Both the position numbers and the translations under genes were made by a program. From Escherichia coli (lineage in GTDB: Bacteria > Pseudomonadota > Gammaproteobacteria > Enterobacterales > Enterobacteriaceae): a stretch of DNA of 64,000 nucleotides. The stretch is from the NCBI GenBank assembly GCA_005400705.1, contig GCA_005400705.1_4079.1; one strand, written 5' to 3'. This document shows, piece after piece, positions 1-22,032 of the stretch. The number at the start of each line of letters is the position of its first letter. Position 1 is the first letter of the stretch. Below the pieces are notes generated by a model. The model ran no database searches. It worked only from the letters and a program-made list of their open reading frames with translations, and was not told the origin of the DNA.

Positions 1-1570
1 GAACACCATCACCAGTAATTGGATGCCAATCTAGATAAGTTTCACGGTCAGCTTTATAGTACTGATATGTTCTATCAACTTCAATAACATATGCATACAT
101 ACCATCAACTGGTTCTTTAAAAACTTCCATATCATAAACAGTACTGAATACACGATACATATCAGTACGTTGGACTTGTGGAGTTTGTTTTACAAATTGT
201 TTAGAGTACTCTTCTGAACGAACCCAATCGGTTTGAAGATTCATTTCATTATTTTCATCAATAATGTTATAATAGTATAAACCATCAATTTCAACTTCTT
301 TCCCAAGATGGTCATAGGTATAACGTTGGGATTGTAAAAAGTTTTCATAAATGTAATAATTATAATCACCAAGTTCAATGTTATATCCATATACACTATC
401 AGTTGCATAGTTGTAATTTATTTTAAAACCAAACAACTCTGAACCTTTAAAGTTACTTGATGGATATGTAGTACTGTTGTCAAGTTTGATACCATTACGA
501 TCATAAAGTTGGAATTTAGGGAATATGTTAACACTAGTTTTTGATTGTGCACGAACCCACAAAGATCCATTCCAGTACATAGAACTATTACCATACTCAT
601 TACCTTTAGTGATTAGAACAACATCACCATCTTGAGGTTCACCACTTGGGCGTGATTCGGTTTCTTCTTCTGGATCTAGTGCTAAACCATAAACACGCGT
701 ACCATCTTGCATTTTTTTCACATATACATTATAAATTCTATTGTTTTCACCATTGTTACCAATACTGGTGAATAGAATACGCATTCCATCTTGCGGAATA
801 ATACCATCAATACGTATACCACTATTAATATCTTTTTGAACGATATCTTCAGGTTTAATAATATCAGAGAACAGATCAACAGTTCCACGGAATTTTGTAC
901 CGTAGTTCATTAGCTCAATATTTTTATTATATTCAATAATTGGTGCACGTGCACGAATAAAACGTGAATCTTGCATTAATTCTTCAGTTAATATTGAGCC
1001 ATCTTCTAATGTTTCACCTAAAGTATACCAAAAGTTTTGTAGTGACCATGTATTACCATTAAGTGCTCCACGTTCCATTACAATGTAATCAGGTGAAGTA
1101 ATATTATAAGAGTTTTTAGTATCCCAAAGATATGAGCTAAAATTGTTCATTTTATTTGGGTTAATAGCTGGAGTCCATGCATAAAACTTACCGTTGAACA
1201 AACGGCTTTCATTATCGGTTAGTGCTCCATAATGATTCATGTATCCAACTAGATCATCATAAAATTGAATTGAACGAATTGTCGAATCATCATTTTTTGA
1301 GACGTAAGCAGTGGACAACTGATAAAGTTGACGTGCTACAGTACTTTCATGTAAGAAGATATTACCAGCAGCGGCAGGAGAACCCATATCACCAATATAG
1401 CCGTCAACTAATTCGTTTTCAGCCGGATTAAACCATTGTTGAATAACATCATCACTGACTTTTTGAATATCTTCTAAGCCTTGCATCCACTCAGGCAATC
1501 TTTTAATAAAAAGCTTCTTCTGTACTGCTTCAGCCATCTGTGTAGGTTGAAACTTAAAATTATTAGTCAT
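1..1570 (-). CDS. virion structural protein of baseplate/tail module (partial; C-terminus lies beyond window start)
   Basis: Hand-translated open minus-strand frame from ATG at 1568-1570 to window edge without stop (MTNNFKFQPTQMAEAVQKKLF...); GGAG about 10 nt upstream; contiguous and co-oriented with baseplate genes; absent from ORF track because truncated. Confidence 0.6.
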   Translation of the reverse strand, partial: MTNNFKFQPTQMAEAVQKKLFIKRLPEWMQGLEDIQKVSDDVIQQWFNPAENELVDGYIGDMGSPAAAGNIFLHESTVARQLYQLSTAYVSKNDDSTIRSIQFYDDLVGYMNHYGALTDNESRLFNGKFYAWTPAINPNKMNNFSSYLWDTKNSYNITSPDYIVMERGALNGNTWSLQNFWYTLGETLEDGSILTEELMQDSRFIRARAPIIEYNKNIELMNYGTKFRGTVDLFSDIIKPEDIVQKDINSGIRIDGIIPQDGMRILFTSIGNNGENNRIYNVYVKKMQDGTRVYGLALDPEEETESRPSGEPQDGDVVLITKGNEYGNSSMYWNGSLWVRAQSKTSVNIFPKFQLYDRNGIKLDNSTTYPSSNFKGSELFGFKINYNYATDSVYGYNIELGDYNYYIYENFLQSQRYTYDHLGKEVEIDGLYYYNIIDENNEMNLQTDWVRSEEYSKQFVKQTPQVQRTDMYRVFSTVYDMEVFKEPVDGMYAYVIEVDRTYQYYKADRETYLDWHPITGDGV

Positions 1571-1616
1571 TTTTGGACTCCATATAATTCGTTCATTCAT
1601 TTGATTTATTTATGAT

Positions 1617-1643
1617 ATAAAAAAGGCGTTCCGAAGAACGCCC
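1617..1643 (-). terminator. rho-independent terminator after the 1153-aa baseplate gene
   Basis: GGCGTTC-cgaa-GAACGCC hairpin followed on minus strand by T-run (plus-strand A-run 1619-1624). Confidence 0.6.
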
Positions 1644-1649
1644 GTTATA

Positions 1650-4600
1650 TTAAGAACCGATATTAATATTACTTTTAGCTAGTGAGTTAACAATTTGAAC
1701 ATTTTCAACAGATGCAGTACTCAAAAATATTTGGTCTGAACGTGAAGGGATTTCAAATAGAGAGCCAAATTTTGAATTTGGATTTTGTGCAACTATAACA
1801 ATGGTACTAATATGTCTACCTAACTGTGAGTGTATGTAAGTACACAAATCAGTATAATAGAAACTTTCACCGAAATCCCAGTTATCAACATTGAAGTATT
1901 CATTAGTTAATGCTATAACATTTTGACGAATTTCATCGTCACTCATTGTGCTGTTTGGTAATTTCACTACTTTAAAATCAGCTTTGTAATCTTCAGCAGC
2001 ACTGTTGCCAAATAAAGGTAAGTACTCAGCACTATGCCAAATAATACTATCACTAATGACTATTTTTTGTTCAACATCTTTGAACATATCTTTCAATTCA
2101 ACCGATGTAGGTGGTTTAGGAATACTACCAACAGCATTATTTTTCAACCAAACGTCAACTTCAGTTTTATATGAATTGGTTAATACATACATATCAATTA
2201 AGTTTGTTCTACTAGGATCAATGCGATTGTCGTCAGGTGCATAGTGTTTCCAATGGAAGTCTATACTAGTACGTGCATTAGTTTTAACAGTGTACTGTGA
2301 AGTAACATCTTTGTATCCATAATAATCTAGCTTCTGATTCTCGTCAGCATTAGTTCCCATGTTATTAATTGCACGATAAAAAGCCAATTCAGGACTAACA
2401 GTGCCAGTATCATCGGAATAAGTTAAATTACTAATTAGCTGTCCTAAACGATCATTGTTATTACCAACTGTTTGTTCAATAAAATAATATTTACCATCAT
2501 AGTTAAAACCAACTAAAAATCCAGAACCTTTACTATATAATCCACTCAATGTGGTTGAACGAATTGCGTTATTTCTAACAAATTCAGTTCTTTTATATGC
2601 ATTCGGCTCTGCCAAGGCTTGTTCCATTGTATAAGACCACGATGAATCAAGAAGTGTGAAGGTATCATTTGGTAACGACAGTACTGATATAGTGAAATCA
2701 CTATTTTCCTGAAATACCAAAATACCACCATATTTTAATGCATCGGTTCCAGTCCAAGTAGGAACAATTTCTTTAAATTGGTTTGGTTCCAATGGTATAC
2801 CATTACTATCTACTTTCCTAGATGTAACAATAACACGAGAACCATCTAGATAGCCATTCTCTTGTTGAATTGTGTCATAAATTTGAAAATCTATATTACT
2901 TGTCAATCCTGAATTACTACTACTAGTAGTGTTAGATGATAAAATTTCAATCTTATCACTTTGAACTGTACCAGTACTAATATCAGTAATTTTTTTAGAT
3001 GATACAAAGTAAAATCTTACTTTTTCTCCACCCACAAAAATATATTCAATACCGTTAGCATCAAATTCCCAAGTTTCTGCTGTATATTTTACATTAATTA
3101 TAATTAAAACTTCATTTCCATTATATACAATAGTATCATCATTGGTACTTACTTCAATAGGAACCCATGATGTCGTTTCTTTGTCATGTACAATAACAAA
3201 ATCAGTTTTTTTATCTAGCATAGCAGAAATTGCTTGAACTTCAACCGAGTTAAATCTAGTTCTATATGGTAAAATGTACTCTATGGCTTGCATTCCACTT
3301 GGAACCGATGTACTCAGTACATAAAATCCATTATCCAATACACTAACTACACTAGCCCATATAGTAGTTCCAGAATTAGAAAATTTAATTAGAGTACCAA
3401 CCTGATATGAACCATAAACTGTACCAGATGAACCCAAAATTCTACCATATGTGTTAGTTGTATAATTTGAATTGTATACCGGAGTCCATGCTTGTTGTAT
3501 TTCAATACCAATTGTATTTGATGGAAACGCTTGGTAACGTTGTATTACCGCATTTTCACCAATCAATGGTTGAATATTGTCAATAACAATACTAGCATTT
3601 GTTTTTGTAGTTGGTAGCAATAATGATCTATTAAATTGTGTGTTTTCTTGATATAATGCACCATCATCACTAAAAACATCGGTATTTTGATACTTACCAG
3701 TAGGATCATTAATATCAATAAATCTTGATTGTCCACTATAAATTCTATTAATAGCTTTAGATTTAAGTACAGTATTGCCTAAACTAAGTGGTGCAATATT
3801 ATAATCTTCACCATTGACAAAACGGTTTTGTGTATAGTACATTTGTGGTGCACGTGCTTTAATCTGCTCAATAGTCTCTGCACTTTGTGCACGGTCGGAC
3901 TCATATTGTAATGAAAAACGTATATCCAATGTACTAGATTCATAACTTGACTGTGTTTTTGTACGATATGTATATTTTACGCTTTTATTTTGAATTTCAG
4001 AAGTTTTAATGTTATATGTTTTACCATTACTAACACGATACCATACACGGAACGTCCCACGGGGAACAACACCACTTCTTGAGTCTGGGTACTTAATTGT
4101 TATTTGGTCTTTATCACGAGTAGTAACAGCAAAAATTGTTTTTAATTGACGATTAACAGTGTTATATGCAATACTTTCCATTGATGGAACTTTTGTCCAT
4201 TTGGTACGAACAATACCATCTTCATTTATTTCTTGAACCCATACATCAGTTTCGTTGATATTATCAACGTTAATATCTTGTATACGGTTCTCTTCACGGA
4301 TAGCATATTGATAATCTTGATATGTCAATGTACCTTGTACGAAATATACAAAAAACCCAGTATTTGGTGAGCTAAATCCATTACCATCATTTTGATAAAC
4401 AATATATTTTTGCTCTTGTGGTTCTGGATGTCGTTCTTCAACACCAACAGACGTAATATCAGGATTCACTACTTCAAATGTCATAGATTCACCATTGACA
4501 GTTGCAACAAATGGAATACTGGGTGCTGTCATTGGGATGGTGTTCATTCGATATAGTTGGCGGGAGACACCATTAACATCAATACGCTTGACTGGATTAC

Positions 4601-5111
4601 CAAATTGGTTAGTACTGACAAATGAACTGTTCATTACTAGAATAAAGTTTTCATACCAGTTAGCATCCATCGGGTCATTCCAACGAATGATTTTATCTTT
4701 TAATGATTCATTAAAACTATTACGAACATCTTGGTTTGTTTTAATTTCGGTTAATTTAGCAACTGCACGACCTGGATATGAGCGGCGTGGTGAGTAAGAA
4801 ATCATTTTAGCTAGTTTTAGTACTGATGCACGACGAGTTGCAGTATCTAAAAAGTTTTCACGTGTGTTCAAATCCATACGAAATGCCAAGTTCTGACCTA
4901 GCATAGAAATCGTATCTAAAATAAAAATAAACTGGTCGTTTTCGATCCAGTCGTTGAATGAGTCTGGGTAAGTTGCACGTAGATAATCAATCATACTCTG
5001 ACGGATAGTATCGAAATCATAAGCTGTTAGATTGATTTTATAAAAACTTTCATATACTTGAGTCCAATCCTCACCACTATATAAATTAGACTGTCTTTTT
5101 TGTTGTGACAT
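1650..5111 (-). CDS. large baseplate wedge-like structural protein (gp6/gp7 class by size and position next to gp25-like gene)
   Basis: 1153-aa ORF directly downstream of gp25-like gene in late minus-strand cluster; product assignment is positional inference. Confidence 0.55.
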   Translation of the reverse strand: MSQQKRQSNLYSGEDWTQVYESFYKINLTAYDFDTIRQSMIDYLRATYPDSFNDWIENDQFIFILDTISMLGQNLAFRMDLNTRENFLDTATRRASVLKLAKMISYSPRRSYPGRAVAKLTEIKTNQDVRNSFNESLKDKIIRWNDPMDANWYENFILVMNSSFVSTNQFGNPVKRIDVNGVSRQLYRMNTIPMTAPSIPFVATVNGESMTFEVVNPDITSVGVEERHPEPQEQKYIVYQNDGNGFSSPNTGFFVYFVQGTLTYQDYQYAIREENRIQDINVDNINETDVWVQEINEDGIVRTKWTKVPSMESIAYNTVNRQLKTIFAVTTRDKDQITIKYPDSRSGVVPRGTFRVWYRVSNGKTYNIKTSEIQNKSVKYTYRTKTQSSYESSTLDIRFSLQYESDRAQSAETIEQIKARAPQMYYTQNRFVNGEDYNIAPLSLGNTVLKSKAINRIYSGQSRFIDINDPTGKYQNTDVFSDDGALYQENTQFNRSLLLPTTKTNASIVIDNIQPLIGENAVIQRYQAFPSNTIGIEIQQAWTPVYNSNYTTNTYGRILGSSGTVYGSYQVGTLIKFSNSGTTIWASVVSVLDNGFYVLSTSVPSGMQAIEYILPYRTRFNSVEVQAISAMLDKKTDFVIVHDKETTSWVPIEVSTNDDTIVYNGNEVLIIINVKYTAETWEFDANGIEYIFVGGEKVRFYFVSSKKITDISTGTVQSDKIEILSSNTTSSSNSGLTSNIDFQIYDTIQQENGYLDGSRVIVTSRKVDSNGIPLEPNQFKEIVPTWTGTDALKYGGILVFQENSDFTISVLSLPNDTFTLLDSSWSYTMEQALAEPNAYKRTEFVRNNAIRSTTLSGLYSKGSGFLVGFNYDGKYYFIEQTVGNNNDRLGQLISNLTYSDDTGTVSPELAFYRAINNMGTNADENQKLDYYGYKDVTSQYTVKTNARTSIDFHWKHYAPDDNRIDPSRTNLIDMYVLTNSYKTEVDVWLKNNAVGSIPKPPTSVELKDMFKDVEQKIVISDSIIWHSAEYLPLFGNSAAEDYKADFKVVKLPNSTMSDDEIRQNVIALTNEYFNVDNWDFGESFYYTDLCTYIHSQLGRHISTIVIVAQNPNSKFGSLFEIPSRSDQIFLSTASVENVQIVNSLAKSNINIGS

Positions 5112-5185
5112 AATTTATTCCTTTAAATCAGTAAAGTACTAGATCAGTACTGGGAATTATATATAGAAATATTTATTCAAAAAGA

Positions 5186-5207
5186 AAAGCACTCCGAAGA
5201 GTGCTTT
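5186..5207. terminator. hairpin terminator (likely bidirectional) between gp25-like and large wedge genes
   Basis: AAAGCACTC-cgaa-GAGTGCTTT hairpin; T-rich tracts on both sides. Confidence 0.5.
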
Positions 5208-5212
5208 TATAA

Positions 5213-5608
5213 TTATAAAGACGAAACTGAATATGTTGCCATTCGATTATTACTTCTTGCATCAAATACTATAGTAAGTTCTTCTAATGCGTCCAATACT
5301 ACGTACTGTAATACAATATTCATTTGGTATCCATATTCTATTCTTGAAATTTGTAATTTTTTAAGATTTAAACGTGGGTCTAAGCTAATTATTCTACGGG
5401 CATCTGCTTCTAAAAGGTTGATAGTATTATAACCTTCCAATTCAAATAGCAAATCCCATGCAATAAACCCATAGTCAGCATCAAATGCTCGTTCACCTTT
5501 TTTTGTATTGAAATGATTCATTAAATCTTGGCGAACCAATTCACTATCATACAATGTTTCAGTTCTACCAACTACAGGGGTAGAAAACCCTTTAAAAACA
5601 ACTGCCAT
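5213..5608 (-). CDS. gp25: baseplate wedge protein, gp25/GPW family
   Basis: 131 aa, similar in size to T4 gp25 (recalled as about 132 aa); motif pattern ...KGERAFDADYGF...LFE... resembles gp25/P2 gpW family; located between lysozyme and large wedge gene. Confidence 0.65.
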   Translation of the reverse strand: MAVVFKGFSTPVVGRTETLYDSELVRQDLMNHFNTKKGERAFDADYGFIAWDLLFELEGYNTINLLEADARRIISLDPRLNLKKLQISRIEYGYQMNIVLQYVVLDALEELTIVFDARSNNRMATYSVSSL

Positions 5609-5623
5609 TGTCTATTTCCTTTA

Positions 5624-6112
5624 TTATACGGATTCAACGATACGTGCCATCTTTTCCGCTCGTGAAGTGGTTTGTTTATACCATGTACTATCACGCAATT
5701 CTTTACCAGCAGTTTTGTAATCAGCTTTACCTAATGCGGTCATTGCTTTTTTAAATTTCAAAACTTTGGTTTTTCCCATTTGGAATACCATTAACCATAA
5801 TACACGTTGTACCTGTACTGGTGCAGTCATACCGAATTGTTCATAAATTGATTTTGCATCATTGTACGCAGTTTGAGCATCTTTGAGAAGAAGTTGGTCA
5901 GCTTGAGCTTCGGTCAAACCATTCTTGAAATTTTCACCAGGAAGAACTAGATGACCATAACCAATAGTATCAAGACCTAAACTGTCTTTATATACCCAAA
6001 ACTTATCATTTTTAAAATAACCAAGTTTTTTCTGATAAGCAATAGTTCCTTCAAATTCTTTAATTTCCTTAAAAAATTGCTCATCTGTATTTTTAATTTC
6101 CCATTTACTCAT
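5624..6112 (-). CDS. T4-type lysozyme (glycoside hydrolase family 24), probable endolysin
   Basis: 162 aa; catalytic-region motif EFEGT...YKDSLGLDTIGYGH, MVFQMG, WYKQT..RAEK match T4 lysozyme E/D/T triad layout; RBS GAGGA. Confidence 0.85.
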   Translation of the reverse strand: MSKWEIKNTDEQFFKEIKEFEGTIAYQKKLGYFKNDKFWVYKDSLGLDTIGYGHLVLPGENFKNGLTEAQADQLLLKDAQTAYNDAKSIYEQFGMTAPVQVQRVLWLMVFQMGKTKVLKFKKAMTALGKADYKTAGKELRDSTWYKQTTSRAEKMARIVESV

Positions 6113-6128
6113 AAAGATATCCTCGTTT

Positions 6129-6136
6129 TATTTATA
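6129..6136 (-). promoter_or_regulatory. T4-type late promoter element TATAAATA upstream of lysozyme gene
   Basis: plus-strand tatttata = minus-strand TATAAATA, located between gp5-like stop and lysozyme start. Confidence 0.5.
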
Positions 6137-6148
6137 GTGCTAAAATAT

Positions 6149-8812
6149 TTATTGACATGCCTCCAAACGACGAGCCATTAACTCCGCACGGCGTGTGGTT
6201 TGGCGATACCAAGCAGAATTACGGATTTGTGCCGCTGCTTGTTTGTAATTACCTTTTGCCATTTCTGATAACATAGTTTTAAATTTCAATACACCACCTT
6301 TACCCATCTGAAATACCATTTGGCATAGTACTTGTTGAGCAAGATAAGGAGTTTTCATGTTATATGATGCATAAATTGATTTGGCATCATAAATTGCTTT
6401 ACTACTATCACGAACTAACATATCGTTGGCTTGCTGTTCAGTTATTCCATCTGAAAAGTTTTCACCACTAATAATCAAGTGACCATAACCAATAGTTGGA
6501 TACCCACGACTATCCAAATAACGCCAGAATTTACCATTACGATAATATCCTTTTGCTTGTTGGTATTGTAATGTACCTTCATATTCTTTTAATTCAGAAA
6601 TAAACTGTGCATCACCTGGAACAACTTTCCAATCGATTGCAGTTTTATCAACATTTCCAATATTATAGGTAGGTTGCTCCACCGGAGTTGTTGAAGCTCC
6701 ACTTCTCTGTGTTCTTCTCCTACGAGGCACATGACGAGAACCACGTTGAGAATATCCAGTACCTATCGTTTTGATTTTTGTTGTAACTACCAATTCATCA
6801 CTATCAACTGAAGGTTGTACAACTGCTTTTGGAGCAGATTGATTAGTTGCTTGACCACCAATTAATGTTTTATTCGCCGCATCAGACCCTGTTCCTGTTT
6901 GTGAAGCATAAAATAATCCTGGGTCAACAGAACCACTGAATCCAAGAACATTTGCTGATGTAACACGAATTTCAAACTGTATGACACCATTTGCTTTTCC
7001 AACAACTTGACCTTTTTGAACAACATCTTTGTTTAATAAATCAGATTGAATATTATAAAAAATAGATTTATATCCAGACTTATGTTGTATTAAAAGAGCA
7101 CCATTAGTAATTACTACCACACCACCATCTGGTGCAACTACATCACCTTTACATTGTATTTCCCAACCTGAACGGTCTGCCTTTCCTCCACTTTGTGTTG
7201 GAACACCTTTCCCCCAGTAACCATATTGTCGAATAGTACCGCTACATGGCATTAACATATGTAAACCTTCATATGTAATACTATATCCAGTCATCCCAGG
7301 ATCAGATGTCATCAAATCTTGTGATTGAACTTGTTCAGTTTCTGATGTATAGTTAACAAACTGAACAGCTTCAGTGTCTTGTGCTACGGGTAATTCTGGT
7401 GATACATCATTTGCTGGTTGTGGTTGTACTGGTGATTCACTAGAACCACTTCCACCACCTTGTCTTGGTGGTTCAACATAACTACCATGATTTTCAGCGT
7501 TAACCCATGCAGCAATATCATGAATGTGTTCATTAAGACCAGCAGATGGTGTTCTAAAGTTTGGTGCAGTAAATTCAGCAGTACCGCTATTACCACCACT
7601 ATTAACTGTTAATGTTTGACCACCACCACTAATAATTGCTGATGATGATCCAATTAGGTTTGCAGATGTTGCGGCAGAAATAGAAGCATTTGAACCAGCC
7701 GTAATATCAGTACTGCTACCACTTTGCATACGTAATGATGCAGCAGTAACTAAACGAAGGTCTGCCCCAGAATTAACAACAACTTGACCACCAACTTTTG
7801 CATCAAGAGCACCAATTAGATCTAATTTAGTATTTGCACCAACTCGTGCATTGAAATCTTGTCCGGTTTCAATATTATATGAACGTCCAGCAGTAATATT
7901 AATATCTTGACCAGCACGAATATTAATATTCTTATCACAGTGCATGTCAATATCACCTTCACCAGTGAATTTTATACGTGCAGTGCCATCACGGTTAATT
8001 AAAAGAACATCACCAGTAGCTTCTGATAAAAGAAGTTGTGCACCACTACGTGTTTTTATTACGACACCTTCATTTTTACGAGAACCAACACGTGTATCGT
8101 TTACTGGGTTATTAAATTGTGTATCTTGATATCCATCTGGGTCTTGATCCCACGTTGGTGCTGTTAATTCCTCTTCAGTATATCCATCATCAATAATAAA
8201 ACTATTACCACGTGGCGAAGACATACCATATACAGTACTGGTGGTTTGACGAGTACTACTACGATTCGCCAACCCAGCTTCTTCGTCATATAAAAGGTTT
8301 TGCTTTTTAAGACCTGCGATAATTGGAACGTTAGCATATTTGTCTTGCATATCGGTAGTGATAGTGTTACGATCATAGTCAGTAACAGGAAGTGGCATAT
8401 CAGTTCCACCATAATTACTTACTTCAGTTGCCATACCAGGAACCATAGTATTCATACGCTGGTCATATACACAACCAATCCAATATGCTTGGAATGTACG
8501 GGCTTGTGCAAAAATTACAACAACTGTACACCCTACATCTGGTGGTACTGCCCAAAAACCATATCCTTTTGGATATTGACCATATGCATCAGCACTTGGA
8601 ATACCTGGTGTTTTGCCAGCAAAAGGAGACATGTAAGATGCTTCTATCCATGATTCTTTTGAGTTTTTATCACTTTGAGAACCTTGTATCCAAACTTTCA
8701 GTTTTCCTGATTTAGTTGGATCTCTGTTATCCATAACAGTTGCTAACTGCGGATAAGATGGGTCAAAACGACCCAACTGCTGTTGTGCATACTTTTTACT
8801 TGTATCTGCCAT
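6149..8812 (-). CDS. gp5: baseplate central spike/hub protein (gp5-like) with beta-helix repeats, M23-like region and C-terminal T4-type lysozyme domain
   Basis: 887 aa; N-terminus resembles gp5 OB-fold region; central repetitive V/G/S/T-rich beta-helix-like repeats; C-terminal 150 aa paralogous to adjacent free lysozyme (EYEGT...PTIGYGH, MVFQMG, WYRQT). Confidence 0.8.
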   Translation of the reverse strand: MADTSKKYAQQQLGRFDPSYPQLATVMDNRDPTKSGKLKVWIQGSQSDKNSKESWIEASYMSPFAGKTPGIPSADAYGQYPKGYGFWAVPPDVGCTVVVIFAQARTFQAYWIGCVYDQRMNTMVPGMATEVSNYGGTDMPLPVTDYDRNTITTDMQDKYANVPIIAGLKKQNLLYDEEAGLANRSSTRQTTSTVYGMSSPRGNSFIIDDGYTEEELTAPTWDQDPDGYQDTQFNNPVNDTRVGSRKNEGVVIKTRSGAQLLLSEATGDVLLINRDGTARIKFTGEGDIDMHCDKNINIRAGQDINITAGRSYNIETGQDFNARVGANTKLDLIGALDAKVGGQVVVNSGADLRLVTAASLRMQSGSSTDITAGSNASISAATSANLIGSSSAIISGGGQTLTVNSGGNSGTAEFTAPNFRTPSAGLNEHIHDIAAWVNAENHGSYVEPPRQGGGSGSSESPVQPQPANDVSPELPVAQDTEAVQFVNYTSETEQVQSQDLMTSDPGMTGYSITYEGLHMLMPCSGTIRQYGYWGKGVPTQSGGKADRSGWEIQCKGDVVAPDGGVVVITNGALLIQHKSGYKSIFYNIQSDLLNKDVVQKGQVVGKANGVIQFEIRVTSANVLGFSGSVDPGLFYASQTGTGSDAANKTLIGGQATNQSAPKAVVQPSVDSDELVVTTKIKTIGTGYSQRGSRHVPRRRRTQRSGASTTPVEQPTYNIGNVDKTAIDWKVVPGDAQFISELKEYEGTLQYQQAKGYYRNGKFWRYLDSRGYPTIGYGHLIISGENFSDGITEQQANDMLVRDSSKAIYDAKSIYASYNMKTPYLAQQVLCQMVFQMGKGGVLKFKTMLSEMAKGNYKQAAAQIRNSAWYRQTTRRAELMARRLEACQ

Positions 8813-8825
8813 AATATTTTATTCC

Positions 8826-11075
8826 TTAATCAACTATACTATCGTGACGTTTGAGTGCACGAATTACAATTGCAGCTTGAATTTGTTGTGTAAAAGAACC
8901 ACCTGCACCAAAATCATGAACAATTTTATTAACACGATAAATTGTTTGGTTAAATGTGGTTGGTGTATTAATATCCAAAACACCAGTGTTATCATTTATT
9001 GATATTACTGGTTGTAATTTCAGTAATAGATACGCTTCAGATGTTATATAATTTGCTACATGATAATCATCTGGGTTAATTTCCATATCTTCACCATTAA
9101 TTACTTGTTCTAGATATTGTAAGTAAGAGTAATCACTCCACCCTAACCAGTACGGGTCGCCTACTACACGCATATCGAGTTTACACAAAAAAGGTCTATT
9201 GTAATAGTTGTCACGTATTTTACGTCTATCCATTTCATATGTGCTGCTGTTATCGTTTAACGAAGCGGATAAAGTTGTTTCATTGTTAGTTGCTTCGGTT
9301 GGCATTGTGAACACTTCACCATAACGGTGACCAACACCATCAGTACCGCCATCGTTTTCTTCATAAGTGGTTACATAATCCTCAATATATTGAGGTAAAA
9401 CATTGACTTGATAGTTATTATAACGGTCTTGTTCTTCTGCGTTACCAACCTGCATTTGATTTTTTGCTAAAGTTTCAACTTCAGTTAACAATTGTTGTTG
9501 GGCTTGTGTTAACATCCCTCCTAAATCACGAGTTACACGTAAATCACTTGTTTTTGCCCATGCGTCTGGTATACTATTGTATTGTACACCTTGAATATTG
9601 AGTTCTTGGGATGTATGTGTACCTGCATGGTTCGCTACATCTTGTATCGGACCAGGGTTACGTGTAGTGGCTACGAAAAATTGCTGATCGAATTTCAAAT
9701 CCAAATCAAGTATCTCACTATTAAGCCCACTAAATTGATAATTATAAGTTTTCATGTTTATTTTTGGTTTTTGATCATTAGGATCTACGTATTTTTCTGC
9801 GTTCTCGAAAAAGTACTCAAATGTGAAATTTTCAGGTTGTAAATCCGATTCATGAACAATATCACCTATTTTAAATCTAACAATATAAAAAATTACTTTA
9901 TAAACAGAAGTATTACGATAATTATCAAAACCAACGTATTGTTTAACTGGTATAATGTTTACAAATTGACGCACACTAGTACTATCATCGGCTTGTACAG
10001 TACATGTATCAATAACGTCATCAATAATTCGAGATATAGGAGTACTTGGGTTCCATGAAAAGTTTTTAGAACCTTGTGCACCACTTTTAGTTGTTCCGGC
10101 CTCTGCCATTTGTTTAGAATCATAGTTTATAAACAAATCTTGCAAATCAGGTGCTACTTTAAATTCGAAAAATTTACCTTCGGATAATTCACCAAATTTA
10201 TATCTAAGATAACCATATTGTTGGTCAGCCATCTGATTTAATTTATCTTCTAAATCAAAGCAGAAGTCACCAAAGTTTTCAGCAGTACAATTGAATGGTT
10301 CTTTTAAGGTCCATTCAATGTTATCAACTAAAGCTGCTCTATTATGAACTAAGTTCATAGTATACATCATAGTACTACCACTTTGTGAAGCACTTGCAGT
10401 AACACTATTAATTTTAACTGACCAGCGTCTTGTTGTTTCTGGGATAATTTCAGGTATTCCATTTTTATTAAAGCCAATAAACTTTAATTCCAAGATCAAT
10501 GGCAAGTCCATAAATTTATGATATCTAAGTTTGTTACTTAACGAAATTAATTCATCATAAAGACTCATACTATTATTTTCAGACATATTAAGTACTGCTG
10601 TATTAAAACAATAGTTTGTTGTCATTCCTGGTGTTGAAGGTCCAGCTTGTGTCATTTGTACACTAGTGATATTATATTTGCCAGTAACACCACTTTCTGA
10701 TATCACATGTCGTTGCACTTCTGCATCTGGGTAAAGCCAAAAGTTTTTAAAATCATCTTTATCTAAGGCAAATAAACAAAAGTGCCATGTTGGATTATCA
10801 TATTTCAATAATTTATTGTCATACGGTATTACAAACTGACTTAAATCTAGATCTTCATAAACTTGATCAACACTAGCACTTTGTTTTGGTAATGATACTA
10901 CATTACTTACATTTGCTTTGTAATTATTTTTTGTAATAGTTTTTACATCATTTTGTAATGTATTTGCTGTAGCTTTCAAACTATCAAGTGCATTAGATGT
11001 GGTGGTTTTAGCCTTACCAGTAATACTTGTAATATCATTTTGAAAATTATCAACTGTACTTCGTAAATCTGCCAT
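8826..11075 (-). CDS. baseplate/tail structural protein (function unknown; hub-associated by position)
   Basis: 749-aa ORF immediately upstream of gp5-like gene, GGAG RBS; no diagnostic motif recognised. Confidence 0.55.
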   Translation of the reverse strand: MADLRSTVDNFQNDITSITGKAKTTTSNALDSLKATANTLQNDVKTITKNNYKANVSNVVSLPKQSASVDQVYEDLDLSQFVIPYDNKLLKYDNPTWHFCLFALDKDDFKNFWLYPDAEVQRHVISESGVTGKYNITSVQMTQAGPSTPGMTTNYCFNTAVLNMSENNSMSLYDELISLSNKLRYHKFMDLPLILELKFIGFNKNGIPEIIPETTRRWSVKINSVTASASQSGSTMMYTMNLVHNRAALVDNIEWTLKEPFNCTAENFGDFCFDLEDKLNQMADQQYGYLRYKFGELSEGKFFEFKVAPDLQDLFINYDSKQMAEAGTTKSGAQGSKNFSWNPSTPISRIIDDVIDTCTVQADDSTSVRQFVNIIPVKQYVGFDNYRNTSVYKVIFYIVRFKIGDIVHESDLQPENFTFEYFFENAEKYVDPNDQKPKINMKTYNYQFSGLNSEILDLDLKFDQQFFVATTRNPGPIQDVANHAGTHTSQELNIQGVQYNSIPDAWAKTSDLRVTRDLGGMLTQAQQQLLTEVETLAKNQMQVGNAEEQDRYNNYQVNVLPQYIEDYVTTYEENDGGTDGVGHRYGEVFTMPTEATNNETTLSASLNDNSSTYEMDRRKIRDNYYNRPFLCKLDMRVVGDPYWLGWSDYSYLQYLEQVINGEDMEINPDDYHVANYITSEAYLLLKLQPVISINDNTGVLDINTPTTFNQTIYRVNKIVHDFGAGGSFTQQIQAAIVIRALKRHDSIVD

Positions 11076-11086
11076 ACGTTACTCCA

Positions 11087-11401
11087 TTAGCCTATGTTTC
11101 GAGTACCATTAAGATAATTTTGTACTCTTTGATTTGCTGGTATTCTAATTGTTACTCCACTTTTAAAATTATATATAGGATCTTCTCCTAGTATGTCTGG
11201 ATTTAACAATGCGAAAATATAATATAAGCGTTCATTACCATACATTTCGTATGCTAAACGCCAAGGTTGATATTCATATTTCAATGGGATCTCATAAAAA
11301 TCATCAGTATCAGCCGGAACAATATCACGTGGTAAATTATACCCAAGATACCATGTTTGTTTCACCTTAGCGTAAGGTGAGTATTGACTATAGTTGGACA
11401 T
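11087..11401 (-). CDS. LysM-like / tail protein X-like domain protein (baseplate-associated)
   Basis: 104 aa; RLAYEMYGNERLYYIFALLNP...GVTIRIP pattern resembles P2 gpX/LysM-like fold; GGAGGA RBS. Confidence 0.5.
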   Translation of the reverse strand: MSNYSQYSPYAKVKQTWYLGYNLPRDIVPADTDDFYEIPLKYEYQPWRLAYEMYGNERLYYIFALLNPDILGEDPIYNFKSGVTIRIPANQRVQNYLNGTRNIG

Positions 11402-12132
11402 TAAATGAATCCTCCTTTACGTAATAGTTCACCACGTTTGAATGCATTGAGGTTGAACGTTTTAGTCATATAATCCGATGTTGGTTGTTCTTCAAGTTGT
11501 AACATAACTGAGATTTTTTGTGGAACCCAAACTTCATCTTGTGGGTTCATATATCCAGTACTTCTAAGTTGTTCGAAGAATTTTCTACTATCCATGTCGG
11601 ATAAATTAAAAGTACTATCGCTACTATTCAACGGAACTTGAATATAAGAAACATCATTTGGGTAAGTAAAATTATAAGATTTTAAAATAACAGGAATATC
11701 ATTATATGTATAACGACCATATCCACTTAGAAGTAAGATTGGTGGTGGTGCACCTGCAATTGCGAGTTCGGGGTTATTAGCCGAAGCAGCTTGTCTACCA
11801 AAATCCATCAACGAAACAGAACGTATAAAATGAACACATGCCAACGCATACATAGCTTCTGCTGCTGTATTCGCATAAAATTCACCCTGAATCGTGAAAA
11901 CTGTATTAGTAGTGTTCTTATAGTTGTTATAGTTACTGTTAGTATGTATAGGGGACTGTGTTTCATACTGAATTGACCTTTGTTCAGTAATTGTTGGTGT
12001 TACAGTCCAAACCAACCCATTAGTTGGACGCAGAAACGAAAGTAGAGTTGGTTCGGAGCTATCTCCAAAATCACCATATACATAGTTAGCACCTGCGGCT
12101 TTAGGTCGTAATCGAATTCTACGATCAATCAT
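11401..12132 (-). CDS. baseplate module protein (hypothetical)
   Basis: Track ORF 11401-12222; start trimmed to ATG at 12132 preceded by GGAGAA RBS and TATAAATA element; 1-nt overlap with downstream gene. Confidence 0.5.
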   Translation of the reverse strand: MIDRRIRLRPKAAGANYVYGDFGDSSEPTLLSFLRPTNGLVWTVTPTITEQRSIQYETQSPIHTNSNYNNYKNTTNTVFTIQGEFYANTAAEAMYALACVHFIRSVSLMDFGRQAASANNPELAIAGAPPPILLLSGYGRYTYNDIPVILKSYNFTYPNDVSYIQVPLNSSDSTFNLSDMDSRKFFEQLRSTGYMNPQDEVWVPQKISVMLQLEEQPTSDYMTKTFNLNAFKRGELLRKGGFI

Positions 12133-12167
12133 CTTTTTGATTCTCCATAATAAGGGAACATTTGATG

Positions 12168-12175
12168 TATTTATA
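12168..12175 (-). promoter_or_regulatory. T4-type late promoter TATAAATA driving minus-strand baseplate cluster
   Basis: plus tatttata; about 36 nt upstream of ATG at 12132. Confidence 0.55.
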
Positions 12176-12263
12176 CGTGGGACAAACTGCTTTTTGGTGC
12201 TATAATAACATTGATGGTACAAGGATTGTACCTATTGGATTTAAACATGGAGAGTAAAATACA

Positions 12264-13103
12264 ATGACAAATAGACCAAAGCGTAAAAAGTATCTCAATA
12301 ATGCTGATTTACTGCGTGAAATACAAAAAAGTAAAATTTCATATTGCTGGTTATTAGACAAATCATATAGTATGTATGATTATATTGTTTTTCATGAGTC
12401 AGAAATTACTGCTGAGTTACTAGAAAAAGCTAAGGCAGCCCGAATTAAACGACTGAACAATGAAATGCTTGATAGTATTCGTGAAAAGGAAAATATGAGT
12501 GCTAAAAAAGCTAAAGAATATGCAGATGAACACAATTTAGTTATCACTGACGTTCCAATTGATGAAGTTGTTATTCGTGTTATTACAGATGAACATATTC
12601 CACCAGATACTAGAGTTAACTTTGAACCATTCAAGCATTATATTGTAGATAATGAAGGTATTCTCTATGAAGTTTGTCGTTCTCACTGGAAAGGCGACCT
12701 TGAAACTGGTGAATTCAGTACTGTTCATGGTAAAATTACAAATGAACTTGGGAAGATGTTCATTAAACTTGCAGAGGAAATCTCACACAAATCTAATTAC
12801 AGAAACTATACATACTTAGATGAAATGATGGGTGATGCAAGAATACAATTAGTTAAAAACGCACTTCTCTTTAAAGAGAGCATTCTTTATAAAAAAGATA
12901 AACCAGCAGTTCAGCTAAATCCTTTCTCTTACTATACATCATTCGTAAACAATAGTTTTCGTTCTATATTGAATAGTGAGAAAAATGTTCGAAATATACG
13001 TGATGATTTACTTGAAATGCATGGCTTTACGCCATCACATACACGTCAAATTGAAATTGAATTGAACATGATTGAAAGGAAAAATGAAGATGGCTCTGTT
13101 TGA
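12264..13103 (+). CDS. gp55: late-transcription sigma factor (gp55-like), extended C-terminus
   Basis: N-terminal KYLNNADLLREIQKSK resembles gp55 N-terminus as recalled; T4-like synteny 55-47-46; GGAGAG RBS. Confidence 0.6.
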   Translation: MTNRPKRKKYLNNADLLREIQKSKISYCWLLDKSYSMYDYIVFHESEITAELLEKAKAARIKRLNNEMLDSIREKENMSAKKAKEYADEHNLVITDVPIDEVVIRVITDEHIPPDTRVNFEPFKHYIVDNEGILYEVCRSHWKGDLETGEFSTVHGKITNELGKMFIKLAEEISHKSNYRNYTYLDEMMGDARIQLVKNALLFKESILYKKDKPAVQLNPFSYYTSFVNNSFRSILNSEKNVRNIRDDLLEMHGFTPSHTRQIEIELNMIERKNEDGSV

Positions 13104-14121
13104 TAAAGCAATTACATTCACTGATATTCACTTAGGTTTAAAGAATAACAGCAAGCAACACAATGAAGATTGTTTAAACTTCATTAAATTCATGATTGAT
13201 GTAGCTAAAAAAAATAATATCAAAGTTTGTGTTTTTATGGGAGATTATTTTCATAATAGAAGTAATATCAATATCCAAACACTAAACTATGGTTTACAAA
13301 TTCTTCAATTATTAAATGATAATTTTGAAAAAGTATATTTTTTAGTAGGCAACCATGATATGTATCATAAAAACAAACGTGATATAACAAGTATCAATAT
13401 GGCTCAAGTTTATGAAAATATAGAATTCATTAATGAAATTACAACATTTGATGATTGTACTTTCATTCCATTTATGATTGAAGATGAATATAAGTTGTTA
13501 CCTCAACTAAAAAGTAAGTATGTTTTTGGTCACTTAGAGTTACCAGGTTACTTGCTTAACAAGATGGTAGAAATGCCTGATCATGGAAAAGAAACAGAAG
13601 GTTCTTTTGGTGGTTGTGAGTATGTTTTTAGTGGGCATTTTCATAAAAGGCAGTCAAAAACAACTTCAAAAGGAACTCGTGTAGTTTATACTGGTAATTG
13701 TTTTCCACATAATTTTTCCGATACATGGGATGATGCAAGAGGTGTGATGATTCTTGAACATGGTAAAGAACCTATTTTCAAGTCATGGGATAATGCACCA
13801 AAATATAGAACATTCACACTTTCTGAATTGTTGACTGATCCAAGCTATTATCTACAAGATAACACAATATCAAAAGTTCAAGTTGATATATCAATAACAA
13901 CTGATGAGATTAGTTTTATTCGTGATACATTTACTAAACTTTATAACATTAGGGAGTTTAATGTTGTAACTAGCAAGCAAAGTATTTCAGAATTAATCGA
14001 AGATGGTGTTAGTTTTGAAAGTACTGAATCAGTTGATGAGATAGTTTTACAGCAAATTATGGAAATTGATTCACCAATGTTTGATAAAAATCTTCTAATC
14101 CAAATTTACAGATCGTTATAA
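13084..14121 (+). CDS. gp47: recombination endonuclease subunit gp47 (Mre11/SbcD-like phosphoesterase)
   Basis: Motifs FTDIHLG, GDYFH, LVGNHD, GHLE, SGHFH typical of calcineurin-like phosphoesterase; start moved from TTG 13072 to ATG 13084 with AGGA RBS. Confidence 0.8.
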   Translation: MKMALFDKAITFTDIHLGLKNNSKQHNEDCLNFIKFMIDVAKKNNIKVCVFMGDYFHNRSNINIQTLNYGLQILQLLNDNFEKVYFLVGNHDMYHKNKRDITSINMAQVYENIEFINEITTFDDCTFIPFMIEDEYKLLPQLKSKYVFGHLELPGYLLNKMVEMPDHGKETEGSFGGCEYVFSGHFHKRQSKTTSKGTRVVYTGNCFPHNFSDTWDDARGVMILEHGKEPIFKSWDNAPKYRTFTLSELLTDPSYYLQDNTISKVQVDISITTDEISFIRDTFTKLYNIREFNVVTSKQSISELIEDGVSFESTESVDEIVLQQIMEIDSPMFDKNLLIQIYRSL

Positions 14122-14129
14122 GGGACTAT

Positions 14130-16277
14130 ATGCTAAACATTACACGTATATCTATGAGGAACTTCTTTTCATTTGGTAATGCACCACAATCAATTGATTT
14201 GAATGGTTCCGACATTTCATTAGTACTGGGTCAAAATAATGATGCAGTTATTGAAGGTGGTGACAGTACCGGACGTCGAAATGGTGTAGGGAAAAGTGCT
14301 ATTATTCAAGGATTAGTTTTTGGATTATTTGGTAAAAGTATTGGTAATGATATTAAAATTCCGAACCTAGTCAATAAAACTAATGGCAAAAATTGTGAAG
14401 TAGTTGTAGAGTTTGAAAAAGATGGTGTACAATATCTGGTTGAACGTGGGAGAAGTCCCACGTATTTCAATTTTGTTACTTTAGGGAAAGATAATAAAAT
14501 TGAAGATGAATCAAGGGGAGAAAAGAAAGACACACAAGAAGATTTGAATGAAATTCTTGGTATATCTCAATTATTATTTGAACATATTGTAGTACTGAAT
14601 GCTAACGTTGAACCTTTCTTAGCTTTATCCACACAAAAACAACGTGATATGATAGAAGAACTTCTTGGAATAACACAGTTGACGGAAAAAGCTGAAATGC
14701 TAAAGGAGATGTATAAGGATACTAAACGTTTAGCCGAACAAGAAAAGTTCAAAAATGAAACTGTAGCTGCAAGTAATGAACGTATTCAAAAAAGTATTGA
14801 GACACTACAAGAACAGGCAAACCAGTTTGAAATTGATAAAAATAATAGAGTATCTAAGTTAAATGAAGAGTTGAATATATATAAAACTTTAGACTTTAAT
14901 GACCTCTATGAAGCTGCTGATATAAAAGAGAAAGCTCTTATTCATAACGCAAAGCGTGGGGAAATCGAACGCCGTGTACAAGAGTTGGCTTTAAAATTTG
15001 ATGCATATGACCGTGAACTTGAAAGATCTAAAAGAGAATTAAATCTAAGCATTGATAAGCTAAAAACTATTGATATTAGTGCAGAATTGGAAAATCATAA
15101 TGAGTTGGAGATATGGAAACAGTTAGAGGGTATTCTAAAAGAGAATAATAACCAAAAACGTTTCAAAGAACAAAAACTAAACTCACTAAAAATAGCTTTA
15201 AAAGGATATGAATGTTCAATTAATGCTGAAATTGACAAATTATCAACAGTTGAAAACAGCAAATGTCCACTTTGTATGTCTGAATTAGAACATAACGAAC
15301 ATACTTCTTCAATTAAAGACAAAATCCAAAGTACTATTAATGATCTTCAAGCTAAAATTGATAGTTCTTCTTCTGAAATTGAAACATTACTTCAAGAAAT
15401 TGATAGTATTGAGATTTTTGATATGCCACCTAAGCCTGTGACATATTATAATACACTTTCAGAAGCACAAATGCATGAACATAAGCTTCAAGAATTGGTC
15501 AGAAAGAGTGAAGAAGAACAAATAAACATCTATGCAAATGAACTTATGTCATCATATGATGAACTTAACTCATATGAACTAATGGAAGTTCCAGATACAT
15601 TAAACAAATATGAAGTTAAAGAGTTAGAAATGACTGTAAATTCATTATCACAGCAATTAGATCGTGAATTGAAGACTACTAACACATTTATTAGCCAAAT
15701 TAATACCCTGAAGACTGATTCTTTAGTACCAATCGATTATAGCGACTATAATAATCTTGATAAAATGTCAAATCACCAAGATTTCTTGGTTAAATTACTT
15801 TTAAACAAGGATTCTTATGTCCGTAAACGTATTATTGAGCAAAATATCTCATATTTGAATACACGACTTCAGTACTATATCGATATGTGCGGTTCTGAGC
15901 ATAATGTTGTGTTTTTGAATGATTTGAGTGTTGAAATTGAGAAGAGTGGACAGTACTTTGACTATAAACAGCTTAGTAGAGGTGAGCGTACAAGGGTAAA
16001 CATCGCATTATCTTGTGCTTTCCGTGATACATATGAGTCATTATACCAAAGTATTAATATTCTTATCATTGATGAGATGATTGACCAAGGTCTTGACTCA
16101 AGTGGTGTTCTACGTGTGTGGTCTATCTTCCAAGATATGGCTGCTGTACGTGGTAAGAACGTTTATGCTATTTCCCACAGAGAAGAGTTACTATCTAAGA
16201 CTGAAAAAATCCTCAAAGTTGTTAAAGAGGACGGTTTCAGTACTGTTGAATATGCAACCCTTGACGATGTTTTCTAA
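14130..16277 (+). CDS. gp46: recombination endonuclease subunit gp46 (Rad50/SbcC-like ATPase)
   Basis: Walker A RNGVGKSA; long coiled-coil middle with CPLC zinc-hook-like motif; C-terminal signature LSRGERTRVNIALS and Walker B ILIIDE. Confidence 0.8.
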   Translation: MLNITRISMRNFFSFGNAPQSIDLNGSDISLVLGQNNDAVIEGGDSTGRRNGVGKSAIIQGLVFGLFGKSIGNDIKIPNLVNKTNGKNCEVVVEFEKDGVQYLVERGRSPTYFNFVTLGKDNKIEDESRGEKKDTQEDLNEILGISQLLFEHIVVLNANVEPFLALSTQKQRDMIEELLGITQLTEKAEMLKEMYKDTKRLAEQEKFKNETVAASNERIQKSIETLQEQANQFEIDKNNRVSKLNEELNIYKTLDFNDLYEAADIKEKALIHNAKRGEIERRVQELALKFDAYDRELERSKRELNLSIDKLKTIDISAELENHNELEIWKQLEGILKENNNQKRFKEQKLNSLKIALKGYECSINAEIDKLSTVENSKCPLCMSELEHNEHTSSIKDKIQSTINDLQAKIDSSSSEIETLLQEIDSIEIFDMPPKPVTYYNTLSEAQMHEHKLQELVRKSEEEQINIYANELMSSYDELNSYELMEVPDTLNKYEVKELEMTVNSLSQQLDRELKTTNTFISQINTLKTDSLVPIDYSDYNNLDKMSNHQDFLVKLLLNKDSYVRKRIIEQNISYLNTRLQYYIDMCGSEHNVVFLNDLSVEIEKSGQYFDYKQLSRGERTRVNIALSCAFRDTYESLYQSINILIIDEMIDQGLDSSGVLRVWSIFQDMAAVRGKNVYAISHREELLSKTEKILKVVKEDGFSTVEYATLDDVF

Positions 16278-16288
16278 TTAAAGATAAA

Positions 16289-16311
16289 GGGAGCCTTAGC
16301 TCCCTTTTTTT
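16289..16311. terminator. bidirectional rho-independent terminator between gp46 and EndoVII-like gene
   Basis: GGGAGC-ctta-GCTCCC hairpin followed by TTTTTTT; overlaps minus-gene stop. Confidence 0.6.
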
Positions 16312-16787
16312 ATATCAACCATATTTAATTTACCGTCCTTAATCAGCTTTCTAGCTTGCTTTACACGAGCAGTAGTGTTACTACCAGGGACAACTCCTAA
16401 CCCTTCCAGAATCGCGTTTTGCTGTGTTGCTGGAAGCCTTTTAAACTTATTAACATCCACAGTTAGTGCTGTGTGATGTATGACTTGCTCTTCAGGTGGA
16501 ATGTTATTGTTCTTTTCAAGATAATCTGCCAGATTTCTTAGTACTTCATGAAGAGGTTTATCAGTTAAATGGCCCAGACAGCGTTTAAATGAATTTGCGA
16601 CCCTTCCTTCCCATCCATTCACCTCATTTTGAAGAACCTGTCTACAATGTTGATTTCCACCATGATAGTGGTCAAGTACTGGTTTAGTTATTTTTATTCC
16701 TATAATGGGGTCAATACCATTTTGTTTTTTTAGTAGTTCTTTTCTGTAAGCTGCTGCTTCATTGGGATTTTTCAATCTCTTTTTCAT
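16296..16787 (-). CDS. HNH-type nuclease, endonuclease VII-like
   Basis: 163 aa; LDHYHGGNQHCRQVLQNEVNGWEG resembles EndoVII/HNH motif pattern LDHDH...N...EG; antisense to flanking genes. Confidence 0.55.
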   Translation of the reverse strand: MKKRLKNPNEAAAYRKELLKKQNGIDPIIGIKITKPVLDHYHGGNQHCRQVLQNEVNGWEGRVANSFKRCLGHLTDKPLHEVLRNLADYLEKNNNIPPEEQVIHHTALTVDVNKFKRLPATQQNAILEGLGVVPGSNTTARVKQARKLIKDGKLNMVDIKKGS

Positions 16788-16847
16788 AGCGTTTTGTCCT
16801 GTTTCTGTAAATAATGTATATTAAAAAGTTTTGTGAGGTACACAAGA

Positions 16848-17804: not shown

Positions 17805-17816
17805 ATAGTTTTTATG

Positions 17817-17851
17817 AACCAAGTAATGTTTTGTTACTTGGTTTTTTTATA
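17817..17851 (+). terminator. rho-independent terminator after homing-endonuclease-like gene
   Basis: AACCAAGTAA-tgttttg-TTACTTGGTT perfect 10-bp stem followed by TTTTTTTAT; second GTACT-a-AGTAC hairpin plus T-run at 17862-17887. Confidence 0.7.
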
Positions 17852-17896
17852 CTTCAAAAATGTACTAAGTACTTTTTTATTTTTTTATGATATTAG

Positions 17897-17925
17897 TGGG
17901 AAGATTTTAAAAATGGTGCTATAAT
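17897..17925 (+). promoter_or_regulatory. promoter, TGGGAA-N17-TATAAT class with TG extended -10
   Basis: TGGGAA 17897-17902, 17-nt spacer, TATAAT 17920-17925 preceded by GTGC; same architecture recurs at 7 other sites. Confidence 0.5.
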
Positions 17926-17931
17926 GTTTGT

Positions 17932-18387: not shown

Positions 18388-18603
18388 TGTCTTCATTCCC
18401 CTGCGGGGGGATGAAAATGTCCTCAACAAATCCCGTCAAGTATTAAATCTTTTAAAGTTCTTTATAATTAATTTAATTAAATGAATATGAGTTACGTAGT
18501 AACGAATATTCTTCAGCTAACGAATGAAATGAGTTAGATGAATCTAATAATATTAAAATTAATCCTTTCATAATTCAATTCAAATAATTCTGTAGTTTAA
18601 AAC

Positions 18604-18629
18604 CAAAAAAACCAGCAACAATGTGCTGG
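18604..18629 (-). terminator. rho-independent terminator after minus-strand late genes
   Basis: CCAGCA-acaatg-TGCTGG hairpin; plus-strand A-run = minus-strand T-run downstream of stop at 18641. Confidence 0.6.
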
Positions 18630-18640
18630 CTATATGAAAA

Positions 18641-19686: not shown

Positions 19687-19720
19687 TTTATTAAATCTCC
19701 ATGTAATAAATGTGTTTTAG

Positions 19721-22021: not shown

Positions 22022-22032
22022 GGACGAAAATA

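Follow-up and report, generated by a model that had tools for sequence, protein, structure and literature searches.

How unusual is the tail-baseplate gene cluster at the left end of a 64,000-nucleotide (nt) stretch of an Escherichia coli assembly (GCA_005400705.1, contig GCA_005400705.1_4079.1; the whole stretch is hereafter the window)? An earlier note on this DNA had described the cluster as a single late operon with parts like those of phage T4 in a non-T4 order, in which two products of 749 and 1153 amino acids (aa) might be fusions or novel baseplate components. The best explanation of the whole is a different one, and we consider it highly probable: these genes make up the conserved inner-baseplate module of a jumbo myophage of the genus Asteriusvirus (Rak2-like) that is essentially identical to phages phAPEC6 and PBECO4. 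The cluster is already published, annotated and proteomically verified in a described phage genus, and it is ordinary except for the role of one giant protein.

A megablast search of a phage collection with window positions 1-12300 matched vB_EcoM_phAPEC6 at 99.4% and PBECO4 at 99.0% nucleotide identity, both over the full 12.3 kb, and slurp01, SP27 and about 20 further Asteriusvirus genomes likewise at ~99.0% identity. Weaker matches came from Rak2-like jumbo phages of Klebsiella, Salmonella, Erwinia and Cronobacter. The leftmost 12.3 kb of the window hold eight open reading frames (ORFs), all on the minus strand; in transcription order their products, as assigned below, are a tube initiator, a gp53-like protein, the hub, the spike, a lysozyme, gp25, a gp6-like protein and the giant. 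The same gene order, next to the same divergent gp55-gp47-gp46 block, was found in the clusters phAPEC6 gp238-gp245, PBECO4 gp531-gp538, GAP32_237-230 and CBB_243-236, with no substantive difference from the window. The public names for the 243-aa, 749-aa and giant proteins are "virion structural protein" or "hypothetical": in the RefSeq annotation of PBECO4, gp531, gp533 and gp538 are virion structural proteins, gp532 and gp537 baseplate wedge subunits, and gp536 is GPW/gp25.

Virion proteomics, proposed in the earlier note as a check, was already available for both phAPEC6 (PMC7247149) and CBB (PMC5259590). Electrospray ionization tandem mass spectrometry (ESI-MS/MS) of purified phAPEC6 virions detected gp238, gp239, gp240 (85.4 kDa), gp241, gp244 (21 peptides) and gp245 (381.9 kDa; 17 peptides), but not gp242, the free lysozyme, nor gp243, the gp25 protein (PMC7247149). 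Six of the eight cluster products (243, 104, 749, 887 and 1153 aa, and the giant) are therefore virion-borne in phAPEC6. In CBB, homologues of gp6, gp25, gp53 and a gp5-like protein lie in identical order and the adjoining "structural proteins" were detected in virions by mass spectrometry; the CBB homologues of the six products are thus virion-borne as well, and gp25 and the free lysozyme were again missing (PMC5259590). The literature search turned up no Rak2-like phage whose baseplate has been solved at atomic level, and the map published so far is at 25 Å.

Much of the earlier description holds. The minus-strand ORFs exist where it had placed them, and they form a late baseplate cluster, in which gp5-like, lysozyme and gp25-like genes stand together with large genes of the wedge class. 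The divergence from T4 is also as strong as it had said, since BLASTP of the cluster proteins against T4 proteins gave no more than three matches: to gp25 (E 1.6e-5), to the lysozyme domain of gp5 (E 6e-16) and, marginally, to gp53. It had overlooked the two genes at 11087-11401 and 11401-12132, and the partial ORF that it counted among the wedge-class genes lies outside the interval it described.

The 749-aa product (8826-11075; phAPEC6 gp240) is, by the fold predicted for it in structure comparison, the baseplate hub, of the same class as gp27, Mu gp44 and the N-terminal half of VgrG. Its AlphaFold2 (AF2) model matches the hub fold, in which tandem tube-like β-barrel domains give a pseudo-hexameric trimer. 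Two independent structure-comparison programs, run against 48,000 and 350,000 chains, returned almost exclusively baseplate hubs and VgrG proteins. The matches (scores in brackets) include the cyanophage A-1(L) hub (13.4, with 259 residues aligned), the diffocin hub-hydrolase (11.9), P1 gp6 (11.4), the hub of the T4-like KP1 (10.8), Mu gp44 (10.7), the pyocin R2 hub (10.0) and phiKZ gp101 (9.7). Foldseek gave probability 1.00 to T4 gp27 (1k28_D, E 8.6e-6), as it did to Mu gp44 and to a number of VgrGs. These alignments span 600-700 columns, and the hub core therefore appears to be broken up by insertions; the insertions and a poorly modelled N-terminus make the protein about twice as long as usual hubs.

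The alternative is that the protein is a truly novel part of the baseplate, or a fusion, and that its match to the hub fold is an artefact which stems from the mediocre quality of the model. We consider it very improbable, although several results tell against the hub assignment and in favour of this alternative. The sequence searches gave no Pfam match and none among PDB sequences (phmmer with the single sequence, and a 30-sequence profile), and hhalign against T4 gp27 gave a probability of 0.1%, so that no sequence-profile method ties the protein to gp27. The mean predicted local distance difference test (pLDDT) score of the model is 65.6, with 187 residues below 50; the AF2 models overall reach medium confidence only (pLDDT 66 and 70). 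The part that can be superposed on hubs amounts to only ~260 of its 749 residues, and the protein is twice as long as gp27 or Mu gp44. Such a length has precedent among the structural matches, which include large hubs of 580-950 aa (A-1(L), 878 aa; HFTV1, 953 aa; phi812, 722 aa), and two programs returned hubs and VgrG proteins almost alone. The location of the gene also argues against a new component: a spacer of 13 nt separates it from the spike gene downstream, in Mu too the hub gene directly precedes that of the spike, and its product is virion-borne. The 749-aa family comprises 58 clusters, exclusively from Rak2-like phages and all at 41% identity or more.

Fold comparison also places the first gene of the cluster (11401-12132, 243 aa; phAPEC6 gp238). 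Its product is, as modelled, a protein of the tube-initiator or tail-tube-cap class (gp48/gp54, the N-terminal domain of Mu gp43, "ripcord" fold): the predicted tail-tube fold matches proteins sited at the tube-baseplate junction, and the Mu gp43 N-domain is among the structural matches of the cluster. A TTG start at 12222, reached by mechanical extension of the ORF, was dropped for the ATG at 12132, because the latter is preceded by GGAG, agrees with the annotations and leaves a TATAAATA motif in the spacer. For the annotation of Rak2-like genomes, the gain is that two "virion structural proteins" can be named as predicted hub (gp27 class, 749 aa) and predicted tube initiator (gp48/54 class, 243 aa). 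The second gene (11087-11401, 104 aa; phAPEC6 gp239), whose start overlaps the stop of the 243-aa gene in an ATGA, encodes a gp53-like wedge protein. Its match to Pfam PF11246 (Phage_gp53) is marginal (E 1.1e-4, 22.4 bits against a cut-off of 21, aa 35-79 only), and it also matches phrog_7145, "baseplate wedge subunit".

The 887-aa protein (6149-8812; phAPEC6 gp241) has the OB-fold (PF04717, E 7.9e-7, aa 23-116) and the β-helix of a gp5-type central spike, the latter as a VgrG-type DUF2345 match (E 1.9e-8, aa 278-329) in a region that is rich in repeats to about aa 430. The β-helix is followed by a linker, a Peptidase_M23-like segment, a basic linker and a C-terminal GH24 lysozyme domain (Phage_lysozyme, aa 765-882), both domains being of types that bind or degrade the cell wall. 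In T4 gp5, in contrast, the lysozyme is inserted between OB-fold and β-helix. The M23-like segment (about aa 560-640) scored below the Pfam gathering score (E 3e-4), and its HxxxD and HxH metal ligands seem, by eye, to be replaced, for example by IQFEIR where active enzymes have HLHFE; if so, it would be a degenerate, probably non-catalytic domain. The same succession of OB-fold, DUF2345-type β-helix and C-terminal enzymatic domains characterizes "evolved" VgrG proteins of type VI secretion and hydrolase-bearing hubs or spikes, and hydrolase-bearing hubs (the diffocin hub-hydrolase, and the phi812 hub with its C51 peptidase) are among the structural matches obtained here. The 887-aa protein differs from VgrG in having no gp27-like N-terminal half, since the hub has a gene of its own in this cluster. 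As a secondary possibility, the lysozyme of the spike may be carried past the tip of the needle, as in an evolved VgrG; if so, the enzyme would be deployed otherwise than in T4.

The gene downstream of the spike (5624-6112; phAPEC6 gp242) encodes a free T4-type lysozyme of 162 aa (Phage_lysozyme, E 5e-9). Since it is 52% identical to spike residues 728-885, it is a tandem duplicate of the 3' end of the spike gene. Its UE-S1 orthologue, LysUE1, has been cloned, purified and found to be muralytic (PMC12805682). Its absence from the phAPEC6 and CBB virion proteomes, which is expected of an endolysin, suggests a soluble enzyme, possibly the endolysin, rather than a baseplate part. The PA5oct-like phage Cassandra has neither the spike lysozyme nor the free one, its spike being only 477 aa long; acquisition and duplication of the lysozyme were therefore lineage-specific.

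Two wedge genes follow. The 131-aa protein (5213-5608; phAPEC6 gp243) belongs to the gp25/GPW wedge family, of the sheath-initiator class (PF04965, GPW_gp25, E 1.7e-8, 34.6 bits against a cut-off of 27.2), and is the T4 gp25 match of the BLASTP search above. The 1153-aa protein (1650-5111; phAPEC6 gp244) matches phrog_219 over aa 26-125 (E 1.2e-20), and T4 gp6 itself matches this family at 1e-216, hence a family-level assignment as an expanded gp6. This segment, homologous to the helical core-bundle domain at the gp6 N-terminus, also matched cyanophage gp6 in tblastn (E ~1e-6), and for the other gp6 domains, the C-terminal dimerisation domains included, weak Pfam matches appeared among its homologues (Gp6-like_1st in 2 of 6, E 0.002; Gp6_C-III in 1 of 6, E 0.0065). 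From the PHROGs and cyanophage gp6 matches, this product is predicted to be an expanded gp6-class wedge protein. Some results count against these two placements in the baseplate. Homology to gp6 was demonstrated for the N-terminal ~100 residues of the 1153-aa protein only, and the missing gp25 peptides in the phAPEC6 and CBB data leave its incorporation into the virion unconfirmed. Direct BLASTP of the 1153-aa protein against T4 gp6 gave E 0.67, and searches of the PDB (phmmer and a 6-sequence profile) gave chance matches only.

Is the gene order then unusual? All the T4 classes gp53, gp5 (with OB-fold, lysozyme and β-helix), gp25, gp6, gp27 and gp48/54 are represented in the cluster. T4 has one locus in the order 53-5-(5.1-5.4)-6-7-8 and onwards, and a second with 25-26 and 51-27-28-29-48-54. 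The window is colinear with T4 53>5>6>7, and the hub and gp25 genes, which in T4 belong to the second locus, are interleaved here. Homologues of T4 gp8-gp11 were not found in the window cluster, where sequence identity to T4 is at or below detection. In Mu, gp43 (with the tube-initiator domain), gp44 (hub), gp45 (spike), gp46 (gp25-like), gp47 (gp6-like) and gp48 (gp7-like) stand in the same order as in the window. The window proteins are all much larger than those of Mu, and the cluster has in addition a gp53-like gene, a lysozyme on the spike and a free lysozyme; the slot of the 180-aa Mu gp48 is taken by the 3333-aa protein, and no tape-measure gene lies upstream.

The arrangement is also stable across jumbo phages. 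It is kept whole in GAP32, including the divergent gp55-gp47-gp46 block, and both arrangement and block are kept in Cassandra (Arenbergviridae), except for the shorter spike and the lack of the free lysozyme. In Vibrio phage 2.275.O (cluster at ~4727-24331), order and block are kept except for the hub, whose homologue (32% identity to the 749-aa protein) lies ~10 kb away at record positions 308730-310841. In Atu_ph07 the gp25, gp6-like and giant genes stay together. This arrangement is general in P2, Mu and contractile-injection-system loci, and T4 is the derived, split case. The gene order in the window is thus the ancestral contractile-tail order and no oddity; as it recurs in described lineages, the statement that it is "non-T4" is true only in a trivial sense.

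These results revise what the earlier note had made of the large proteins. It had found no motif-level assignment for the 749- and 1153-aa products; this stands for the sequence of the former, to which structure comparison gives a hub fold, and does not stand for the latter, which falls in the gp6 family. Neither appears to be a fusion or a novel component: both are best seen as enlarged standard baseplate parts. The cluster is essentially a set of ordinary orthologues in canonical arrangement from a described lineage. The exception is the giant, for which no homology to gp7 was shown.

The partial ORF at the window start (1-1600, minus strand) encodes the N-terminal ~523-533 aa of this giant, a virion protein of 3333 aa and 382 kDa whose gene runs off the window (PBECO4 gp538, 10,002 nt, record positions 51-10052; phAPEC6 gp245). 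The start is annotated at ATG 1600 in PBECO4 and at ATG 1570 in phAPEC6; the second is likelier, because GGAG precedes it and this methionine is where the PHROG alignment starts. In five lineages (Asteriusvirus, GAP32, Vibrio phage 2.275.O, Cassandra and Atu_ph07) the gene directly after the gp6-like one encodes a homologue of the giant; T4 has gp7 in this slot and Mu has gp48, and we saw no other gp7 candidate within the cluster. The two grounds for its putative wedge (gp7-equivalent) role are this conserved position and its presence in virions. The similarity searches speak against the assignment. Beyond the full 3333 aa, which had no match in Pfam or the PDB, a 5-sequence profile of the N-terminal region found nothing in the PDB and gave a probability of 1.3% against T4 gp7 in hhalign. 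A phmmer search with 20 T4 tail proteins against 149 members of the giant family gave no link, a full-length hidden Markov model (46 sequences) gave bit scores all ~0 against T4 proteins, and PHROG scans of distant family members revealed no link to gp7 or to the T4 baseplate.

This lack of similarity to gp7 by hhalign, hmmsearch and phmmer also fits another explanation, namely that the giant is a peripheral fibre, a tail "hair" or a fibre-scaffold protein encoded beside the wedge genes, with a small gp7-like protein at some other place in the 350-kb genome. Several unusual fibre systems have been described in phAPEC6, both along its tail and at its baseplate, and only some of their proteins have been assigned (PMC7247149); in SCTP-2 a ~450-aa gene follows the gp6-like gene, with the giant homologue ~95 kb off. 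We regard a purely peripheral protein as rather unlikely, given the five lineages in which the giant adjoins the gp6-like gene at the gp7 position. As to the gp7-equivalent role, we put forward tentatively, and short of an even chance, that the giant may be a single-polypeptide replacement for gp7 and the whole peripheral baseplate (the equivalents of gp8-gp11), and a docking scaffold for multiple fibre systems. If so, it would represent a very large and structurally uncharacterised family of baseplate proteins, with members up to ~7300 aa. An exhaustive search with the N-terminal domain found 804 cluster representatives (E<=1e-3; clusters at 50% identity), mostly of 3000-7300 aa and from metagenomes and devoid of Pfam or PDB annotation, where a word-indexed search gave only 2 relatives. 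Proteins of this type are very common in large uncultivated phages and lack a structural description. They are the sole residual novelty at this locus, which otherwise has little discovery value, and the function of the giant in the gp7 position is the one biological question that it raises.

The cluster abuts, as the earlier note had stated, a divergent plus-strand block (12264-16277), which lies 131 nt from the 243-aa gene and consists of the late sigma factor gp55 (12264-13103; phrog_12791, E 3e-154; phrog_234, E 8e-18), gp47/SbcD (13090-14121) and gp46/SbcC (14130-16277). Like T4, the window combines a gp55 sigma factor with putative TATAAATA late promoters, the -10 element of T4-type late units, upstream of late genes. 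The two TATAAATA motifs pointed out before are present on the minus strand exactly at 12168-12175 (P1, 36 nt upstream of ATG 12132) and 6129-6136 (P2, 17 nt upstream of the lysozyme ATG). On the same strand, a further AATAAATA motif lies near P2 (6146-6153), and two promoter-like motifs with the ATAAATA core precede the 1153-aa gene (P3, AATAAATA, 5170-5177) and the giant gene (P4, CATAAATA, 1607-1614). Terminator-like hairpins, each with a UUCG loop and a T-run, follow the gp25 gene (5185-5208, 10-bp stem) and the gp6-like gene (1624-1643, 8-bp GC-rich stem), also on the minus strand. An ATAAATA consensus had been derived earlier as a late motif of the structural genes of CBB and GAP32, and the CBB authors reported no homologues of the co-activators gp33 or gp45 (PMC5259590).

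From these predicted promoters and terminators we infer at least four late transcription units rather than the single operon of the earlier note, so that the cluster can now be described as four such units. The adjacent gp55-type sigma factor would transcribe them late from (T)ATAAATA promoters: P1 would drive the 243-104-749-887 genes, P2 the lysozyme and gp25 genes up to the first hairpin, P3 the gp6-like gene up to the second, and P4 the giant gene. The first four genes are tightly spaced, the ATGA overlap being followed by 11- and 13-nt spacers with Shine-Dalgarno sequences. Each of the five ATAAATA cores that the minus strand has in positions 1-12263 lies in a spacer; spacers make up 386 nt of this interval, and coding sequence, which has no such core, 11.9 kb (binomial p ~3e-8). 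Every spacer longer than 30 nt has one. This distribution, together with two canonical hairpin and T-run structures exactly at gene ends, makes it improbable that a single late operon is read through from 12168-12175, the internal motifs and hairpins being non-functional or RNA-stability elements. Such an operon would suit the common orientation and tight packing of the genes, and phage terminators are often leaky. Against the division into units, which is predicted at motif level, it counts that TATAAATA is not over-represented in the whole window, with 7 occurrences against ~10 expected from shuffles. Six of these seven sites are intergenic (with ATG 12132 as start), five of them 17-48 nt upstream of a co-oriented start codon. 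A scan for sigma-70-type promoters was uninformative (56 sites against 64 expected).

By analogy with the solved baseplates of T4, Mu and contractile injection systems, formation of the baseplate would start from a hub trimer that bears a spike trimer. Around it would stand six wedges, composed of gp25, a gp6 dimer and the protein in the gp7 position, and the tube initiator would prime polymerisation of tube and sheath. Contraction would drive the spike through the outer membrane, where the spike lysozyme would break down peptidoglycan. The analysis itself shows the gene content, the fold and family assignments, the synteny and the places of the motifs, and the literature shows presence in virions and the activity of the lysozyme orthologue; stoichiometry, order of assembly, the promoters and terminators that are actually used and a place of the giant in the wedge are inferred.

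Two further loci lie beyond the gp55-gp47-gp46 block. At 18850-19686 (minus strand), ~7 kb from the main cluster, a 278-aa "baseplate hub" gene matches phrog_150 (E 1.6e-34) and has three CxxC zinc-ribbon-like motifs, as well as its own TATAAATA motif 35 nt upstream (19721-19728). BLASTP and phmmer of its product against T4 proteins were uninformative; it is possibly a hub or assembly protein of the gp26/gp51 class. Between the gene of endonuclease VII and a baseplate-hub gene, the window has a ~1.08-kb insertion relative to PBECO4 (16789-17865), with an ORF on the plus strand (16833-17804) for an HNH homing endonuclease (phrog_559, E 1e-66). In phage JP4, an HNH endonuclease is found inside the baseplate cluster itself, where the match to the window falls into two pieces and is ~740 nt longer than the query.

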